Shown one piece after another: positions 192-55,866 of a DNA stretch of 64,000 nucleotides. The stretch comes from Gekko japonicus (taxonomy: Eukaryota), in assembly GCF_001447785.1 (NCBI RefSeq), contig NW_015175975.1:798142-862141 (forward strand), written 5' to 3'. Made by a program: the position numbers and the translations under genes. A model generated the notes under the pieces. The model saw only the letters and a program-made list of their open reading frames with translations. It was not told where the DNA came from and did no database searches. The first letter of the stretch is position 1, and the number at the start of each line of letters is the position of its first letter.

Positions 192-290
192 GGTCTAGAA
201 GCAACTTCTGGGTGATTTGATACCATCTGATCTGCATGACTCAACTGGGCCTGGCTGCTTTCTGCTGTTTAACAGCAGCCACCCAATGAA

Positions 291-512
291 AGCCAGTGTA
301 GTGTAGCGGTTTGAGCTTCAGAGCAGGGTTTAGGAAACCCAGCTTAAAATTCCTACCTTGCTGTGGGTGATTTTGGACAAGTTACATATGTTCAGCCTAA
401 CCTACCTCCCAGGATTATTGTGTGGATAAAAAGGAGGAGAGGAAAATAATGTAAGCTCCTTTGGTCCCTACTGTGGAGAAACAGGGTTATAAATTAAGTA
501 AGTAAATAATAA
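291..512 (+). mobile_element. tRNA/CORE SINE (Squam3-like), old copy embedded in the composite element
   Basis: gccagtgtagtgtagcggtt head, cagcctaacctacctc CORE segment, TAAA-rich tail. Confidence 0.75.
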
Positions 513-606
513 ATATAGCTGAAGATGGCAGGCAGATGAAAGGTAGGTTGGTGAATCACTGAAAAGGAGAAAACGAGGCAGGGAAAGGGTAGAGGTGGGC
601 AGGAGA

Positions 607-1044
607 TAGGGTTGCCAACCCTAGGTTAGGAAATTCCTAGAGACTGGGAGTGTGGAGAGGGTGGGATTTAAGGAGCAGAGGGACCTCACTGGGGTATAAT
701 GCCACAGATTCCACCTTTCAAAACAGCCATTTTCTCCAGGGGAATTATGGTTGCCAGCCTCCAGGTGGAGCTGGAGATCACTCAGAATTACAAATGCTCT
801 CCAGATGACAGAGATCGGTTCCCCTGGAGAAAATGGCATCTTTGGAGGGTAGACTCTATGGTATTAAACCCTGCTGAGGCTGCTTCCATCCCCAAACCTT
901 GCCCTCCTAAGGCTCCACCTCCAGCTTTCCAGGAATTTCCTAACCTGGAGCTGGCAATCCTAAATGGGAACTGATCTCTGTAGTTGGGAGATCTGTTGTA
1001 ATTCCAGAAGATCTCTGTGCTCCATCTGAAGGTTGGCAACTGTA
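607..1044 (+). mobile_element. hAT-like MITE with a second copy of the same family inserted in inverse orientation (746-962)
   Basis: Outer TIRs TAGGGTTGCCAACC...GGTTGGCAACTGTA with 8-bp TSD gcaggaga/gaaggaga; inner copy TATGGTTGCCA...TGGCAATCCTA. Confidence 0.85.
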
Positions 1045-1056
1045 GAAGGAGAGAAG

Positions 1057-1575
1057 TGTCACGGCTCAGGTGGGGTGTCACCTGATGCTGCCACCACTCT
1101 GGTTCCAGGCTCCCTTGAGAAGGCCCAGAGCACCCTCCCAAGACCAGACCTCCCTTTTGGCTGAATAATAGGTGTGAGGACCAGGCAGAGTAAACAATGA
1201 AAATAGTTTATTTTATAGGAGATCAAACAAACAAGGTGCAGAATAATAACAGTAAATGGGTGAAAAGAAATCAAATGCCCTAACACATCTAAATATATAC
1301 TGTCCCTAGCTCACTATCTCAAGTGGCCTTAAACTACTCACCCTTCCCTCAGGATGAGGGTTTCTCCCTACAGCAGCCTTCCTTCTGGCTCAGCCCTCTG
1401 GGAAAAAAGAACAGCTTTCCCTGTTGTACCAGTTCTCTTCTTCCCTATTGGTCAAAATTGGCACCAAAACTTCCCAAGGCCTTCTGGGATTTGTAGGCCC
1501 AGCCTCCTCCCACTGCTAGCCAGGCTCCCTGGGCCTAGTAGGCCTCTGGTAGCAAAGCCCAGATCAATTTTGACA
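1057..1575 (-). mobile_element. Solo LTR (Gypsy/ERV-like)
   Basis: TGTCA...TGACA termini, 5-bp TSD agaag/ggaag, AATAAA on the minus strand near 1207-1212. Confidence 0.7.
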
Positions 1576-1970
1576 GGAAGTATGAAAAGGGGACAGGCTA
1601 TAGGGGTTTTCAGAAAAGAAAAGAGGAAATAGTGGGGGAGGGGGAAATGAGATGTATTTAATTATCTTAGGCATCTTCCACAGCACCATATGTAGTTTAC
1701 AAACTCATTATTCCCAAACATGAGCGTGGATCCAGAACAGTATTTCTGTGAGCTCAAAAGACTTCCACCCATTAAGTGACTTTCTCACTCACACTTCCAG
1801 CTACGCCCCCAAAATGCAGTGCCTGGGAGCCCAAAGAAACCCTGCTCTGGGTCCAAATCAGAGGGTTACATTTCAAAGTCCTATGACAGGCATATCTTAG
1901 CATTAAAGCATTACGTGTCTTAAAAATAACGTATGTCACTTGTTTAACCCAATTTTTTCTTGTTTAAAAC

Positions 1971-2310
1971 TAGGCTTGCCAAGTCCCCCCGGGGGTGGGT
2001 GGGAAAACCCCCACCCTAGAGGCCTGTTACTTGCCGCCGGCGGATCGGGCCCCGGGGGAAACCCCACCCCCAAAGCACGCGCCATGCCCGGCGTCAGCAC
2101 GTCACCCTGAAGTGACGTAATTACATCGGACACATTGGGGGCGGGGCCACAATCATCCAAGGGAAAACTCGGATGATTGTGGCTCTGCCCTCAACGTGCC
2201 CGGCGTGATTGTGTCACTTCCGGGTGATGTAATTGCGGTGCGCGTGCATGGACTACCGGACGAGGACGGGACTCCCCCGCTATACAACAGGTGAGGACTT
2301 GGCAACACTA
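1971..2310. mobile_element. Young CpG-rich hAT-like MITE
   Basis: TIRs TAGGCTTGCCAAGTCC / GGACTTGGCAACACTA, perfect 8-bp TSD tttaaaac, internal palindrome centred near 2165. Confidence 0.88.
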
Positions 2311-2880
2311 TTTAAAACAGTATAATCATCCCCACAATATTGTCATCTTCCCCGTCTTGCTTGACCCTTAATCCTCTTGATCTATGGCATAATGTGGCCA
2401 CAAATACTTTTGTTTGCTTCATAATTGTGGCTCTAGAGTTAGAAGATGCCCCCTCTGAGACCTTTGTTGTAACCAAATGCTGTGCTCCAAGTACTCAGAA
2501 TTTTACAGTGCAATCGTATGCAGTAACTGTTAGCTTCCTGACCTGCCTTCTAGGAAGACCTAAGCCAGGCCAGCACGATATATAACCTATCAAGACCTTC
2601 AAAAACAGCCCATTTCTGCTGCTGGCCAGAAAAGGAATATTCAATACCTGGCCCAATACACGTCTAGTTCAGCCTGATAGTTCACAAGTTGTGCAGGCCT
2701 GCTCTGAGCTAAAAGGTTGTCGGGGGTGTGTGTGTAAACTTAACAAAGGTCAGGATTTTAGAAGTTACCTTAAATGGTTCATGAAATCAAACAGGTTAAG
2801 TGTTGTGAGATGCCTAAAAATGTGAGAACTGACCAAGCAGGAGGATATTTATTGGCCAGAATCAGCATTTTACATTTTTA

Positions 2881-3232
2881 AAGGTAAAGGTAAAGGTTCC
2901 CTTGCTTGAAAGCCAGTCGAATCCAACTCTAGGGTTGCGGTGCTCATCTCCGTTTCAAAGCCAAAGAGCCAGCGCTGTCCGAAGACGTTTCCGTGGTCAT
3001 GTGGCCGGCATGACTAAACACCAAGGCGCACGGAACGCTGTTACCTTCCCACCGAAGTGGTACCTATTTATCTACTTGCAATTTCTTGCTTTCGAACTGC
3101 TAGGTTGGCAGGAGCTGGAACTAGAGATGGGAGCTCACTCCATCATGCGGCACCCGGGTCTCGAACTGCTGAACTACTGAGCTTCCACAGCCTGCAGTTC
3201 AGCGTCTTAACCACTTGAGCCACCGCAGCTCC
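2881..3232 (-). mobile_element. Sauria SINE, apparently full length
   Basis: (ACCTTT)n BovB-type tail at the left end, tRNA-like head at the right end, flanking acatttttaaa-like TSD; near-identical to 19391-19622 and 35919-36176. Confidence 0.9.
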
Positions 3233-3627
3233 TAACATTTTTAAAACTTGGCTTTAAAACAGCAGTTAAAAAATGAACTGTGATCACTAACTGTAGTTCT
3301 AGCAATATTCCAAGGAGTCATGAAATTACATGCCAAGAAATTTACAGCCTTCAGCAACACACACACATAAATTCAAGGCCATTTCACATGATCTCTTGCT
3401 ACCTGACGACTCTGGGACAAGCATACTAGTCAGACACACCCATGTGGGCACACTACTGAACTCACAGTCTGCAGGGGTTTTCGAGGAGGCATCATTTATA
3501 AGAACTAGTGCTTACAAGTGGGGAACTCTACACCTGAATTTGTCAAAATCTCTGGAAGTGTGACACAGTCTCCCCCAACAGGGCTCACTTACAGCATGAA
3601 TCCCCCTTTTCTTGCATGGTAACTCAC

Positions 3628-3735
3628 CTGTGACTGGACATAGTCCCATGCATTCTCAATGGTCCTGTTTTTTTCATCATCAGGATTATAATCCTGGATG
3701 AGTTTATGGACGATTCCAGATACTTCTGCTTTGAG
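3628..3735 (-). CDS. CD82: CD82 coding exon 5 (108 nt; LKAEVSGIVHKLIQDYNPDDEKNRTIENAWDYVQSQ), start of large extracellular loop; gene continues left of the window
   Basis: Acceptor tttgccAG, donor CAG|GTGAGT; WDYVQ motif that precedes the CCG motif; NRT N-glycosylation sequon. Confidence 0.95.
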
Positions 3736-5920
3736 CTGGCAAAGAAACATGGGAAGGTTAATATCTTAGTGAGGCTTGCCCATTACATTACAAAACTGCA
3801 TTTGGTCCACTTGAATTTTGGCAACATGTGCAAGTTACTATACTATCTGATTAACTTCGTCCATAAATCATACTTTAACTTTCCAAACACAAAGACACAG
3901 TATGAGCATAAAAACTGTATATACAATCTACACAGAGCAGAATGCGTATTAAAAGGATAAATACATGAGCATTTATTCAAATTTGTACAAAAAGCTGCAG
4001 CAATGAAATATGTAATTTAAGAGTGTCAGGCCCTGATACAACATTAAACTGATGCTTACCTCACAATTTACAGGGGACCGACTTCTTTGCAGTTTCTTCC
4101 CACATTGCTCTGAACTATTTGGATGCAGGACTACATTAAGGGGATTGTATGGTTCCCTCCTTGGGAAGGAATCCTAGAAGGCCCATCCGCTGCTTGGATA
4201 CTCATTCTGTGCACCATCAAGGTCTCCAGGCTTGCTGGCAAGAGAGCTTTAGGTGCCACCTTAACCTTTAAGTTATCCTGTTGCTATGTTCTTCCCTATA
4301 GGCTTCATTGAGAAGTGCAGGACTTCCTCATCACCTGTCTTGAAGCAGGAAAGCGTGTGTTCTTACGCAACTCCCCCCTCCCTTCTATACTACTTACACA
4401 AGCATCCTTGTGTATCCATGTGTACATGGGATGCATGCTCACAGTGAGAACAGGCCATTATTTAATATACTTTAAGTTTAAGACTAAGACTAGGCTTGCC
4501 ATGGAGTATTAAGGAATTTCTCTTTGGACAAAGGGCAGCCCAAATTGTGCTTACCACAGCTAGCAATGTCAAACAAAGGCCCATCTCCCACATTAGGCAA
4601 GACCTACTGCTTGGAGGTGACACTCCTCTGTCATGGGAGTCACAAGGCTATCAGGGTACGTTCCAATTGGGGTCAGATACAGAGAGAAACATTAAGCCAA
4701 CCCTAAAACTGTATTTTCCCTCCAAGAATACTGCACAGATGAGGCTGTGGAAGATGAGGACTTTCTTAGCCAATGCAACTGAGAGAGTGTGTGTATATAT
4801 GGGGGGAGTGCTGCAGGTTGTACCGCTGTGCTTCTGCCAGTAAGCAGATCTTCCTCAGTGGACCACATGAAAATGTCTCATTCAGTGGGGGTGGCCTAAT
4901 AACCTATTTCAGTCATACAGCCAGTCTGTGTCTTCCTCATCCTGCTTTGCCTCCAGTCACTCAAAAAAGCCCCAAGCAGCCAAGTGCAAGAACCCAGCAA
5001 CAACTAGAGAGTCAGGCAGGGGATTCAGCTGGCACTTGAAGGCACTGGCAATGGGCTTTCAACTGGGTCAAGTTCCACAGCAAATAAGTAATTGTGAGCA
5101 GTCTGTCATGCTGCCAGATTCTAGCATATGGCGACCCTGTTCAGCTCCAATAAAGCTTGGCAGAGAAGCTCAGACACATAAACCCAAAAATGCTGTGGCG
5201 TAGAAGCTACACGCAGACTGCCTTTCAGCAAAGCTGCTTGGAAGTAGGCTACATTATCTGCTTATGCACTTCTACTGGACTTCCATGGGGAAAAATAATC
5301 ATGCAACCTTGCCCATCCTTCCCCTCTTCCCCACCCCAGTTGATGTCTAACCCTCATCCCATTACTTAACTGCTCATTCTTGCCCCCACCCTTATAAGCA
5401 GGAGGGGACTGATGAGAAGCAAAGCAATTTGACCTGGTTCCTGCAGCTAATGCAATTGGTTTTGGCTACTTTTGTCCTAAGTGGCAGTAAGCCTGCGGGC
5501 TTTTCTCTCTCCTCTGTGTTCTGCATAGTGGGGCAAGAGAAAGCTGCTTTCGTGTACTAGACTTCAACCTGCTGCTTTCAAAGACTTCTAATGGTGACTG
5601 AAGCTTCCATTCCAAATTGTGCAACGTTCTGTGTGCTTGCCTAACCAAGGAGCAAGGATTCATCTAGGCTAGCGTCATCATGACTTAGGCCCCAAATCTA
5701 ATTTTTATGCCCAAGATGAATCCAATTACTATACTTCTGGATTTGGGCTTCTGAGGACATGTACAGTGTAGAATCACAGTCTCTTCCCACACATGAAGTA
5801 CTAAATCAGGAAGGCCTAAAATAGGATGCATGGCTTTCAAGTGAATGCAGTCTCATCACCATTGATACAATCATCCCCAATAATTTGAAACACCAACTTC
5901 CCAGTGACCATGTCCTTTAC

Positions 5921-6704
5921 TAAGGATGGGCACAAACCAGTTCATGAGCCAAAATTTAGGCTAGAGTTGCCAGGGCTCCAGGGTCTGCCCTGAGATTACA
6001 TTGTTGACATTGGGTGGGGGGTGATGCTCTAGTTTTGGGGCAAAACTCTATGGTTTGAGCCCAATTTTACCATAGAGTTTTGCCCAAAAACTAGAGCATC
6101 ACCCCCTCCAGCGGCGTGATGACGCCACCTCTGGGTGACATCATCATGTCGTGTTTGGGGGCATTTGCAGGTGGGTTTTCCCCCACTGGCCAGCTGGATG
6201 GCAGCAGAAAGGGCTCTGTAAAAATGGGGGAACCCCCACCCAGACCAGGGGCCTGGCAACCCTAATTCAGGCCAAACTATGTCTGGTTTGAAGCTCAGTA
6301 ACCGCTATTCAGGGAAGATGCATTCCCTGAACATTTACCAGACTTTTGGGTCCATTTGGCTGTTTGGGGCCAGCCATTTAACCCTTTGGTTTTGCTCCCT
6401 GCCACTTCAAGGGGGGAGCCAAACCAAAGGGTTAAATTAAGCCCCTTTCCAGCCAATCCCCACCCCTTTCTCCCAGCTGCAGTGAGCCATGTCTGGGAGA
6501 AAGGTGAAAGGGAAGTCCCTCTCAAGGTGATCCCCACTCCCTTTCTCCTGGCTGTGGCTTTCCATGGCTGGAAGAAAGGGGGAACTGAACTTACCAGACT
6601 GGTTCAGTTCGTGTGGGGCCTGTTCAGTTCAGCTTGGGATTCAGTTCATGTGCTGCCCGGAACCTTGAATTGAACCCCCTTTTTTAGGTTCGTGCCCATC
6701 CCTA
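5921..6704. mobile_element. hAT-like non-autonomous element (TAGGGATGGGCACGAAC TIR) containing a nested TAGGGTTGCCA-family MITE (5962-6264)
   Basis: Outer TSD tcctttac/tcccttac; inner TIRs TAGAGTTGCCAGG / CCTGGCAACCCTA with TSD atttaggc/attcaggc. Confidence 0.82.
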
Positions 6705-7673
6705 TCCCTTACACACTACATCAACCATAGTTTTCCCCCCAAAGACCCCACATATTTGCCCAAATACCATGGGACTTATGAGCAGGTGAACTTGGTTTAA
6801 TGGTGCCATTAAAGTGAACAACTCTAACGCCCCTACCAAGGGCATATAATGGAAAATAAAATTACTGTTTAGTAAGACCTTTTGCTTTCCAGTTTGAGGC
6901 AGGGGAAGGAGATGTTGCACACACTTCACCCTGCACAAACAGATCTTTGAACCATCTCAATCATTTATAGAAGTGCTTGCAAGAATCAACGCTTGTTGTC
7001 AAAACCAAACTTTTATTTCTTCAGCATCAGCTGAAATAATTCCAGTGTCATAAAATGAGGTTTAGATCTCCACAACTTAGAACATTGCTTTAGTTCTGCT
7101 TTCAGTGAAAGTGGGACAAAAGGTCATAGCAACAAATATGTACAGTATCTTGTTTTTGTGCTTTCCTCAGATGGAAGTCTTATAATGGGTTGCTTTAAAG
7201 GAGTGCAGCACTAATAGTGTGGATTTGCAGGAAGTGGAGCAAAGAAATTAGACCTGAGGTAACAAAACCACATACATACCCCTACCTAATCTCTAAAGGG
7301 AGGCAGGGCACAGCAAGTACAAGAAAGAATATAGCTAGGCACAGCTTGATGACAGTTATTTTAAAAGATGTCTTTCAGGAATGTTCAGGTGGCTTATTTA
7401 AAAGAGACAATATAAAAACCAGGAAGCAGAACAGACAGAGACAGATATCAAACCCAAAAGCCACTGTATAAAACAGAGATGCAAGGCCATAATAAGAAAG
7501 AGGCACACCATACTATCAATGTAGTTCAAATGGCTGCTGAAAAAAGGGCACTGAAAGTATGCGCTTGTTATTTTGGGAGGAGTACATCCTACCAAACGTA
7601 AGTTGAATGGAGGTGGTAACTTCTATCAAGTTGCAGTGGACTTATGGAAATCCCATATGGTTTTCAAGGTGAG

Positions 7674-8222
7674 AGACATTTGGAGGTAGTTTATCAAATC
7701 ACTGAACCACAGCCTAGAGCACCTCAGTCTTGTCATGATTGTTTGCCCCATCTAGCCCACCACAGAATCCAGACTCAGATTAAGAAGAGCCACAGCTTTA
7801 GTGGACAAACTAGCTGCTCCATTTAACTCATGGCCATCACAGGGACTTGGAGTCAGACAGCAGCTGCAAGTTCCCTGTGGGAACTCGCTTCTATAGCCCC
7901 ACAGGGTCCCAGTTCTGATCAAGAACTGCAGTGTGGGGGGCAGGATCAGACATTTGGAGGTAGTTTACCAAATCACTGAACCACAGCCTAGAGCACCTCA
8001 GTCTTGTCATGATTGTTTGCCCCTTCTAGCCCACCACAGAATCCAGATGCAGATTAAGAAGAGCCACAGCTTTAGTGGACAAACTAGTTGCTCCATTTAA
8101 CTCATGGCCATCACAGGGACTTTGAGTCAGACAGCAGCTGCAAGTTCCCTGTGGGAACTCGCTTCTACAGCCCCACAGGGTCCCAGTTCTGATCAAGAAC
8201 TGCAGTGTGGGGGGCAGGATCA
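7674..8222. repeat. Tandem duplication, two units of about 274 bp
   Basis: agacatttggaggtag... starts at 7674 and again at 7948; only a handful of substitutions. Confidence 0.95.
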
Positions 8223-8521
8223 GCTCTAGCCTTCCTCGTGCAAGTTTCCTGACACAAGACAGTACACATGCAGCCCCGATATGGGGCAAACAGCATTCAA
8301 TTCAGTTAGCATTCTTTTTTTTTTTAAAGCTACAGGCATTGCTTCTGTTATTTCAGAGAATTTTAATTCCCCTGATTTTTTTTTTAAGATTTCAGATTTT
8401 CCTGTAACCTTGGGACTTCCTTCAGGTTTGTAGAGAGATCCCCTGTTATCTCTCCCTAATTCCATCCTGGAGCTCTATCAATCACATTCCCTATAGCCTG
8501 GTTCCAAAATAGATATACCAA

Positions 8522-9290
8522 CAAGCAGGGGACCTGTGAGGACTGGCAGGGGACATCTCATTTCCCCTACCCCACTGTTTCCTCTTTTTCTTCCCTAAAA
8601 GTCCCATAGCCTCTCCCCTTTTCCTGCTTTATTCTTTCCTTCCCCCCCACCAGCCAATCTACTGTTATCGGCTCCCCAACTTCAGCCTTCCCTCCCCCAG
8701 TGGCATCTGCCTAGGAAAACTATGGTCCAGTTGCATGGTGTCTTCTGCCAAGTCAGGCCCAGTTGTATGTTGGGGAGCTCACAAGGGCTTGCAGGGAGGC
8801 ACCTCATTTCCCCTGTATCCCCCCTCCCTTCACTATTTTCCTCTTTCCTTCATCCTGGCAAGCCCCATTTCCTCTCTCTTTTATCATTCTCTCCTTCTAA
8901 GCCATTCACCAACCTACCTTTTATTTGCCTCGCATCATCAGCTATATTAATTATTGGCTTCATTTATACCCCACCTTTCTCCATAATAGAGCCCCAAAGC
9001 AACTTGTATCATTCTCCAATCCTCCATTTTATCCTCACAACAATGCTGCAAGGTAGGTTAGGCTGAGAATGTATAACTAGCCCAAGGTCATCCGTGAGTT
9101 TACATGGAAAAGTGGTGATTTGATCTGGGTCTACCAGATCCTAGTTTGAAACTCTAACCGCTATACCACACTGGCTTATGTGGGATGGCCACTGTTGAAC
9201 AGCAAGCTGAGCCTGGTTGAGTCATGGAAGTTGGGTGGTAGCAAGTCGCTTGGTGGTTGCTGGTAGGCCTGGTCCCCTTAAAAGGCCAAA
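8522..9290 (-). mobile_element. Composite non-autonomous Helitron-like element with embedded SINE (about 8945-9176) and two 3'-end-like modules
   Basis: Minus strand ends ...gagatgtcccctgccagtcctcacaggtcccctgCTTG|T (hairpin plus CTRR-like end); a related module sits at 8771-8820; homologous to 192-1655. Confidence 0.55.
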
Positions 9291-9959
9291 ACAGTCCAGA
9301 AAAGAACCTAACACCTTACCCCTGCTTTTTCCTGACAGAAATTAAGACTGGAACCAGCTGGCAATATTGTGTGGTTGCCTAGCAACAGCCACTGAGGGCA
9401 TCTGTTTCTTAAAGCTACAGGCTCTGCTTCTATTATTTGGGGAGGGAGTTATTTCAGATTTTTCTGCAAACCTGGGGCATTTTTCAGGTTTGTAGAAAGA
9501 CTGGTTGTGTCTGTTCACAGTTCCCATCTCTGGATTTATGTATCCACAGATTCAGCCACACTGAGAATTAGATACATTGATTAGATACATTAGATACACT
9601 GAAAAAGAGTGAATGCTGGGTGTCATCGAAAAACTGATGACAATGCACAGAATATTTCCAAATGACCTATCCCAGCAGCTTTTTGTTGTTGATGATGATA
9701 ATGAAGTTAAATACCATGGAAAGAAAGCCTCTCTCCTTGAATGTTCTCACGTGACAGCTTCACTCTTCCCAGTGGAGTCTATTGGCTCTCCCCTCCCCTG
9801 TCTACAATGTACTCTGACAATCTGGGCTGGAGCTTTTTCAGTGGCTATCCCATGCTTTATGGAACACCCCTGAGAAGCCGGGGGGGGGGGCTTCTACCCT
9901 CCTGGCTTTCCAATGAGGCTGTGAAGCAGAACTATTCCACAGAGCAGTTGTAACAGTCT

Positions 9960-10250
9960 AAGACTGGGCCTCTGTTTAGGCTTTTAATTATGTGATTTTA
10001 TATGGTTTGTATGCATTTGATTTTATTACTACCCTCCCTGGGTCCTGGCTTGGTCAGTAGAAAGGCGAATTCATAAATATTTTTAAATAAATCAATAGGA
10101 CCCAGATGGAGATGAACAGCAATCATGTGAACTCTGCCCTCTAGAAAAGATGAGAGCCACTGAAGCATGGTACCTCCAGATCCCATCGTATTCTGCGGTC
10201 CAAAAGGATACCATGGTAGATGGTATTTAAAAACATTCAAGGAAATGAAC
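9960..10250. mobile_element. Old L2 LINE fragments (plus-strand 3' tail, then minus-strand RT piece)
   Basis: TAAA-type 3' end near 10090; minus-strand peptide GTMLQWLSSFLEGR resembles the L2 RT segment seen at 22530. Confidence 0.5.
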
Positions 10251-29034: not shown

Positions 29035-29250
29035 GCACATGAAGTTGCCTTATCATGAATCAGATCACTGGTCCATCAAGGTCAGTATTATCTACTCTGA
29101 CCGGCAGCAGCTCTCTAGGGGTTCAGCTAGGAGACTTTCACATCACCTACTACCTCATCTTTTAAATCTGAAATCCCTGGAAAAGCCAGGGGATAAGCAC
29201 AAAACCTTCTGCATGCCAAGCAGATGCTTTACCATTAAGCCACAGCCCCT
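29035..29250 (-). mobile_element. tRNA-derived SINE with CR1-like 3' end (Squam2/Anolis SINE2-like)
   Basis: Minus-strand head ggggctgtggctt..tggtaaagcatctgcttggcatgcagaagg; related copies at 37060-37226 and 55710-55866. Confidence 0.7.
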
Positions 29251-55709: not shown

Positions 55710-55866
55710 TTGAGTCAAGATTGTTGATTCTGACTGGCAAAAATCAGTCTTAAGCTGAGGTCTTTCACATCACCTGCTGCCTGATCCTTATAACTGGAGC
55801 TGACAGAGACTGAACCTAAGATCCCCTGCATGCAAAACAGATGCTCTGCCACTGAGCCACAGCCTC
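55710..55866 (-). mobile_element. tRNA-derived SINE fragment (Squam2-like)
   Basis: Matches 29035-29250. Confidence 0.65.

Follow-up and report, generated by a model that had tools for sequence, protein, structure and literature searches.

Helitrons that carry sequence from short interspersed nuclear elements (SINEs) have been described in lizards. Helitron-2N3_AC of Anolis carolinensis is a non-autonomous Helitron of more than 1000 copies, a rare composite with Poseidon and SINE fragments (PMC3014272; for this and all other papers cited, statements refer to the accessible parts of the text). We describe a comparable element of Gekko japonicus, present in two inverted copies in a stretch of 64,000 nucleotides (assembly GCF_001447785.1, contig NW_015175975.1, positions 798,142 to 862,141 of the forward strand) that is referred to here as the window. 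The gecko element is likewise a non-autonomous, high-copy lizard Helitron type with SINE sequence, but it carries a whole SINE, has kept it in three or more sub-lineages that differ in age, has added miniature inverted-repeat transposable elements (MITEs), and ends in CTTG. We are confident that the two window copies were inserted separately and belong to a dispersed family that starts at A|TC, stops at hairpin-CTTG|T, was likely copied in trans by a RepHel protein, and likely multiplied its Squam3A SINE as a passenger after a single capture.

The vesper bat elements HelibatN and Helraiser resemble the gecko element in their TC start, a hairpin positioned 11 nt from the end, integration at A|T that leaves no target-site duplication (TSD), head-to-tail junctions, sequential capture of sequences including retrotransposons, and long persistence (PMC4224331, PMC4778049, PMC5876387). 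The bat Helitrons in these sources end in CTAG, whereas the gecko copies end in CTTG, a tetramer that is cited for maize Helitrons and, among Helraiser insertions, was seen only in truncated ones (PMC4778049); nothing in the accessible text of PMC12001565 and PMC13286980 speaks against reading it as a variant end. For Helraiser targets, the accessible descriptions give only AT-richness 3' of the insertion, whereas gecko targets show a motif like the element's own left end. The hobo-N families of Anolis, which are non-autonomous hAT elements, are similar in that an inherited SINE cargo has been raised in copy number and shared cargo deletions mark sub-lineages, but hobo-N elements are cut-and-paste transposons with terminal inverted repeats (TIRs) and TSDs (PMC3014272), whereas the gecko element is likely of rolling-circle type. 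Retrotransposons in bat Helitrons are already in print (PMC4224331), and the kind of event, a SINE carried by a DNA transposon or SINE fragments in a Helitron, is already known. In the literature consulted, neither a Squam3-bearing gecko Helitron nor a left-end-like target motif was described, though Dfam, Repbase, or paper supplements may hold the family; PMC10702118 contains 0 occurrences of "Helitron." The accessible text on Squam3A (PMC7983390) treats copy numbers as the result of retroposition and does not mention cargo copies; the derived Squam3A form described here is found only inside the Helitron-type element.

A preliminary description of the window had proposed that 192 to 600 plus 1576 to 1655 is collinear with 8555 to 9270 in inverted orientation and that both copies have the same left and right SINE flanks. 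A BLAST search of the window against itself recovered this arrangement, with 191 to 576 aligned to 9270 to 8884 in reverse (70.6% identity over 398 columns, E = 3e-45) and 1578 to 1655 aligned to 8629 to 8553 in reverse (82%, E = 9e-14), and the alignment contains both shared flanks. The limits given for the copies have to be revised. The minus-strand copy does not stop at 9290 but reaches 9580, and the plus-strand copy, placed at 192 to 1655, has its body there but starts 325 bases upstream of the window (5' end at G000:C16265:797817) and lacks the hairpin and CTTG end after 1655. The minus-strand copy (8522 to 9580, 1059 bp) is a full-length non-autonomous Helitron-type copy of the old subfamily B, identical to the subfamily B consensus at 897 of 1053 positions, with A|TC at 9580/9581 and CTTG|T at 8522/8521. 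The CTTG|T end at 8522 stands as first described, while the accompanying hairpin is present at 8533 to 8550, 11 nt from the end, in decayed form (6 of its 8 base pairs can be read in the sequence, and the fold has a z of -0.87). The plus-strand copy belongs to a different subfamily, A.

The SINE-free 3' and 5' parts of the element, used as genome queries, returned 4727 and 3798 first-look candidates, 40 of which were scored for each query. These thousands of matches indicate that the similarity within the window reflects a dispersed family. A 20-base pattern spanning the flank/SINE junction had 949 exact matches in the genome compared with 0 for the control, which settles whether copies exist beyond the two in the window and sets a floor for the copy number. 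Nearest-neighbor weighting gave ~3,800 copies (3,100 to 4,600, biased low), and capture-recapture gave ~5,000 to 10,000, a range that rests on only 2 overlaps. A figure of ~31,000, obtained by weighting against the A/B consensus, was rejected as inflated because 23 of the 40 sampled copies fell into a third group, subfamily C, and are mostly young. The alternative raised in the preliminary description was that a SINE-containing region had undergone an old local inverted duplication, which would suit two inverted copies lying 7 kb apart. It is refuted by the genome-wide junction matches, by the assignment of the window copies to different subfamilies, and by their mutual identity of ~71% compared with 85 to 87% of each to its own consensus, and we give it practically no credence.

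Alignments of 20 and 24 copies describe a noncoding element of ~1.1 kb that consists of a 5' part of ~425 bp, the SINE, and two GA-rich units separated by a spacer, the first of which closes with a decayed hairpin and the second with a hairpin, ~7 nt, and CTTG. On the minus strand of the full-length window copy, the SINE occupies 8952 to 9179, GA-rich unit 1, which closes with a degenerate version of the terminal hairpin, lies at 8772 to 8943, and GA-rich unit 2, with the hairpin at 8533 to 8550 and the CTTG end, lies at 8522 to 8687. The two units correspond to an internal repeat in the consensus (661 to 836 versus 924 to 1086), and unit 1 likely represents a 3' end that is older or was duplicated. 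The CTTG end is followed immediately, in head-to-tail arrangement, by the 5' part of a relative with greater divergence (8316 to 8521, also on the minus strand). Subfamily C is set apart by its 5' part, by additional MITEs, and by deletion of the SINE tail, and some of its copies also lack most of the SINE head; it nests within A on the SINE tree, and nearest neighbors are up to 98% alike. MITE gains and SINE deletions are common to later sub-lineages, in which the 5' end has also changed. Four members of the wider clan (L283, L297, L304, and L308) combine the ends of subfamily C with different internal sequence that lacks the SINE. A third SINE-bearing copy, of subfamily B, was seen ~7 kb upstream of the window on the same contig (L146, 1085 to 1500).

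The ends of the element were examined in two automatically called sets of 11 full-length copies each, the first of which includes one false 3' call (row L178). The predicted A|TC 5' end was found, with a host A before the TC in 10/11 copies of each set, and a T followed the 3' end in 9/11 and 11/11 copies. As foreseen, neither set had TSDs; overlap between left and right flanks was 0 in 17 of the 22 calls and 2 to 4 nt in 5. The expected lack of TIRs was likewise observed, the best end-to-end match in the consensus being 5 bp; the window copy has 11 columns with 1 mismatch between its ends, but these are not terminal. Among unique flanks, defined in the larger set as those not abutting a family 5' end, T followed the 3' end in 45/47 and 26/26 cases. 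The terminal tetramer was CTTG in 52/53 ends and CTAG in 1, in a survey that admitted only these two. In canonical Helitrons, a hairpin of 16 to 20 nt lies ~11 nt from the 3' end, and the gecko element agrees with this pattern. Hairpin stems of 7 to 8 bp fold in a RepHel copy and in the young copy L185, with a G-C/C-G swap between the families; in the subfamily A consensus, the best fold was a structure without the terminal hairpin.

Empty sites, which the preliminary description had named as a check, were found in five paralogous cases and one orthologous case. At the paralogous sites (L184, L286, L304, L306, and L307), the flanks are joined unbroken at A|T in uninterrupted repeats; the L184 site lies in a free Squam3, and the L184, L286, and L307 sites carry SINE sequence. 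For the young 1.73-kb copy L185, one contig of organism B, a relative, joins both flanks with 29 letters between the aligned pieces, which places the site to within ~10 nt. The old window copy (8522 to 9580) is spanned across its junctions by contigs of the related organisms B and C, so neither provides an empty site for it. In L019, L174, and L179, copies abut precisely head-to-tail at CTTG|TC, an arrangement that would be a genomic sign of rolling-circle transposition by RepHel. These data also bear on the notion of a composite retroposon, in which all 1.1 kb would be copied through RNA by the enzymes of an L2 long interspersed nuclear element. In its favor, the unit contains an RNA polymerase III SINE and, like Squam3 itself, has no TSD (PMC7983390), but the SINE lies internally, starting 430 bp from the 5' terminus, the 5' ends and the A|T insertion are precise, and the unit closes in hairpin-CTTG instead of a simple-repeat tail. 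Moreover, young sub-lineages without the SINE tail or most of its head are still multicopy, and the 3' end and a 5'-end motif recur in RepHel copies. We regard RNA-mediated copying of the unit as extremely improbable.

The cargo was identified as Squam3A by eye from a tRNA head, a short CORE with the Squam3 deletion, an L2-type end, a TAAA tail, and the absence of the 3B/3C insertion. The subfamily B cargo consensus differs from the published G. japonicus Squam3A consensus at ~10 positions in 217 nt, also counted by eye; identity to a mixed consensus of free Squam3 from this genome was 195/227, and the subfamily A cargo differs from the B cargo at 19 sites. An Rfam search of the window found nothing within the element and two tRNA-like matches elsewhere (29188 to 29249 and 55795 to 55866, tRNA family, probably SINE heads). 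The SINE position is fixed across copies, and flank and SINE subfamily agreed in 60/61 copies, a count that is partly circular as the consensuses were built from part of these copies. In a held-out sample of 40 copies, spaced evenly over the first 100 junction matches, they agreed in 32 of the 35 copies that could be scored (P = 0.0014). Fixed junctions together with SINE mutations that track the flank subfamily support the earlier suggestion that the SINE inserted once and was then copied as cargo. When the SINE alone was the query, 26/29 best non-self matches lay in element flanks. A tree built from 114 SINE rows, for which the bootstrap was not fully settled, placed 39 derived cargo rows in one clade (100/99) with no free SINE inside. 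All 30 derived-type SINE loci fetched from 142 pattern matches lay inside the element (two share flanks), so that none of the 30 pointed to a return of the derived SINE to free retroposition. The two loci with the same flanks, L260 and L265, are on different contigs and represent either a segmental duplicate or an assembly duplicate.

Repeated independent hits of Squam3 at a hotspot in an otherwise SINE-free Helitron would explain why B-type cargo differs little from the consensus of free Squam3A and why the tree does not resolve it from free copies. The junction is, however, identical on both sides of the SINE, the derived mutations in the 39 cargo rows are tied to flank type, young sub-lineages share deletions inside the SINE, and no SINE-free form was found (0 genome matches). 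A hotspot is accordingly a highly unlikely source of the cargo. Some apparent SINE-free joins were seen but were rejected as deletions inside the SINE. With copies throughout the genome, a consensus without TIRs or TSDs, and a SINE at a fixed position, the earlier proposal of a rolling-circle family that amplifies a SINE as cargo is supported.

A RepHel relative was expected, and one that shares the 3' end and a 5' motif was found. The Helitron_like_N domain (PF14214) had 34 matches in the genome, and 10 RepHel loci were extended, seven of which belong to one family and two to a family with a hairpin and CTTG|T end. The latter has the same pattern in its last 18 nt as the non-autonomous element. 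Its copy at G000:C8342 has a hairpin and GGGTCCCCTCTTG|T at the 3' end and contains PIF1 domains, HUH and Tyr motifs were read in a sister copy that is 92% identical to it, and the best PDB match of this RepHel is Helraiser (E = 1.4e-73). A motif upstream of the RepHel open reading frame (ORF) scored 46 against subfamily B 5' ends (maximum of 200 shuffles, 40) and 69 against subfamily C 5' ends (shuffle maximum, 42). From these sequence comparisons, we infer that the CTTG RepHel family moved the non-autonomous element. The second RepHel family (7 of the 10 loci fetched) was rejected as the partner on the basis of a CTAG 3' end in the five copies read. Its copies (L096 to L099, L102 to L105, and L108 to L111, on G000:C11350, C15658, C14036, C3412, C4483, and C9018) end in a hairpin and CTAG|T, are 80 to 95% alike, and include one with a 981-amino-acid open frame.

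A Helentron or HLE2-type non-autonomous element (HINE, DINE-1-like) in place of an HLE1-type Helitron would account for the non-CTRR end; DINE-1 ends in CTTGT. The gecko element has none of the 12- to 15-bp subterminal inverted repeats of that class, it inserts at A|T and not at T|T, the RepHel copy ends ~0.8 kb past its last helicase frame with no endonuclease-like frame there by eye, and the RepHel is strongly similar to Helraiser (class definitions from PMC4067079 and PMC11417382). We consider this placement very unlikely. Because the element behaves like an HLE1 Helitron but lacks a CTRR end, it is classed here as a CTTG variant of a non-autonomous HLE1 Helitron.

Several observations weigh against a RepHel-copied family with a single SINE capture. 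The CTRR end anticipated in the preliminary description was not found, given the predominance of CTTG. The motif upstream of the RepHel ORF did not beat shuffles when compared with the subfamily A 5' end or with the window copy's own 5' end, and the 18-nt match at the 3' end is below the shuffle maximum over 19.8 kb (28 versus a maximum of 36), its weight coming from its position exactly at the end. The RepHel copies remain alike beyond the 5' motif, for 220 bp in three copies and ~2 kb in two; the motif is thus internal in these copies and probably represents an inner, older left end. No intact RepHel ORF was seen in the CTTG family, all copies of which are broken. On the cargo side, the old B-type SINEs were not separated from free Squam3A on the SINE tree, and the SINE-free form expected as an ancestor had, as noted, no genome matches. 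Finally, the case for rolling-circle transposition is drawn from genomic sequence.

By analogy with the biochemistry of Helraiser (PMC4778049, PMC5876387), RepHel made elsewhere in the genome would nick the 5' end of the element and peel off one strand, stopping at the hairpin and CTTG, after which the copy would be joined into an A|T site. Since such copying would run from end to end, anything between the ends would travel along. We somewhat favor retroposition of the SINE into an existing element over its pickup from flanking DNA by read-through of an end. The SINE behaves as a neutral passenger that decays while its vehicle keeps copying, as seen in young copies with SINE deletions whose nearest neighbors are up to 98% alike. 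Squam3 heads were sampled at 60 loci fetched from the first 100 of 2952 matches, and 5 of them proved to be cargo (8%, 95% interval of 3 to 18%), a rough share because Squam3A and 3B are pooled in the free class and the heads of young cargo are altered. This count did not support an early supposition that cargo accounts for one-third or more of Squam3A, and a weighted share of 0 to 43% was too noisy to use.

A motif resembling the 5' end of the element itself, which has CTAA at +10, was enriched in the DNA downstream of the insertions. CTAA was found at +6 to +13 (starting at +7 to +10) in 15/47 unique 3' flanks, compared with 1.7% of AT sites across the window and an average of 1.7 in shuffles, and in 5/26 new 3' flanks (shuffle mean of 0.7, P = 0.0008), one of which is mostly N. 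Decayed tandem ends could contribute to this enrichment, and the motif was weak in old non-autonomous copies alone (2/22). In ten subfamily A copies (L006, L008, L013, L014, L015, L017, L018, L041, L162, and L165), the 3' end of a relative lies 2 to 3 nt inside the 5' end, with the same junction but several different upstream ends. Repeated insertion 7 nt before CTAA is consistent with this position of relatives' ends. A search for young 3' ends found 685 of them. Repeated 3' ends were also seen in L298/L299 (C56), 158 bp apart, and in L301/L302 (C99), 120 bp apart. As a tentative extension, which we put at a little short of even, a long-lived clan of gecko CTTG Helitrons may have made about one-tenth of the apparent Squam3A-type SINEs without reverse transcription, with RepHel targets that mimic its own left end (CTAA 7 to 10 nt past the nick) driving insertion into the 5' ends of relatives and the formation of nested composites.

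The copy numbers, subfamily trees, and age profiles of SINEs are taken as a record of retroposition, and SINE insertions serve as phylogenetic markers. A derived "subfamily" found only as cargo (30/30 loci), together with the cargo found among the sampled heads, means that SINE annotations in this lineage mix two mechanisms. The cargo is a nested record of Helitron activity across a species split, as the old copy is present in two relatives and the young copy is absent from one. Helitron finders based on CTRR would miss the CTTG end, and the target motif is a lead on site choice by RepHel.

The remaining parts of the plus-strand copy show how it was interrupted. Positions 1 to 191 hold a MITE-type insert with the inverted end GGCAACCCTA, at the same position as in other copies. 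The body, of the derived subfamily A, spans 192 to 606 with its SINE at ~288 to 511; diagnostic sites favor A over B by 16 to 4 in the flank and 13 to 5 in the SINE, and identity is 350/401 to consensus A and 328/398 to consensus B. The region from 601 to 1575 is not a single insert but contains two. A nested MITE pair at 607 to 1044 has TAGGGTTGCC-type ends and an 8-bp target duplication with 1 mismatch; short TIRs and the 8-bp TSD are those of hAT MITEs, a label that we assume from the 8-bp rule. As this pair is common to other copies, such as L168 and L174, it is likely inherited cargo, judging from the shared sequence. At 1057 to 1575 lies an insert that resembles a solo long terminal repeat, with TGTCA...TGACA ends and a 5-bp duplication with 1 mismatch; in L168, which lacks this insert, the MITE block runs straight into the counterpart of 1575 to 1654. 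What remains of GA-rich unit 2 is at 1576 to 1655, of which 1578 to 1655 aligns to 8629 to 8553; its hairpin and CTTG end are missing. All of these features are on the plus strand.

Just outside the 5' end of the minus-strand copy, 9581 to 9602 contains two extra copies of a 9-base piece of that end, including a private change of the 8522-to-9580 copy. They are likely the result of slippage, although the true 5' end may lie 22 bases further out. Elsewhere in the window, 7674 to 8223 is a 274-bp tandem duplication with 97% identity. A contig of run X1 skips one 274-bp unit, which could reflect polymorphism, collapse of the repeat in that contig, or an artifact of assembly.

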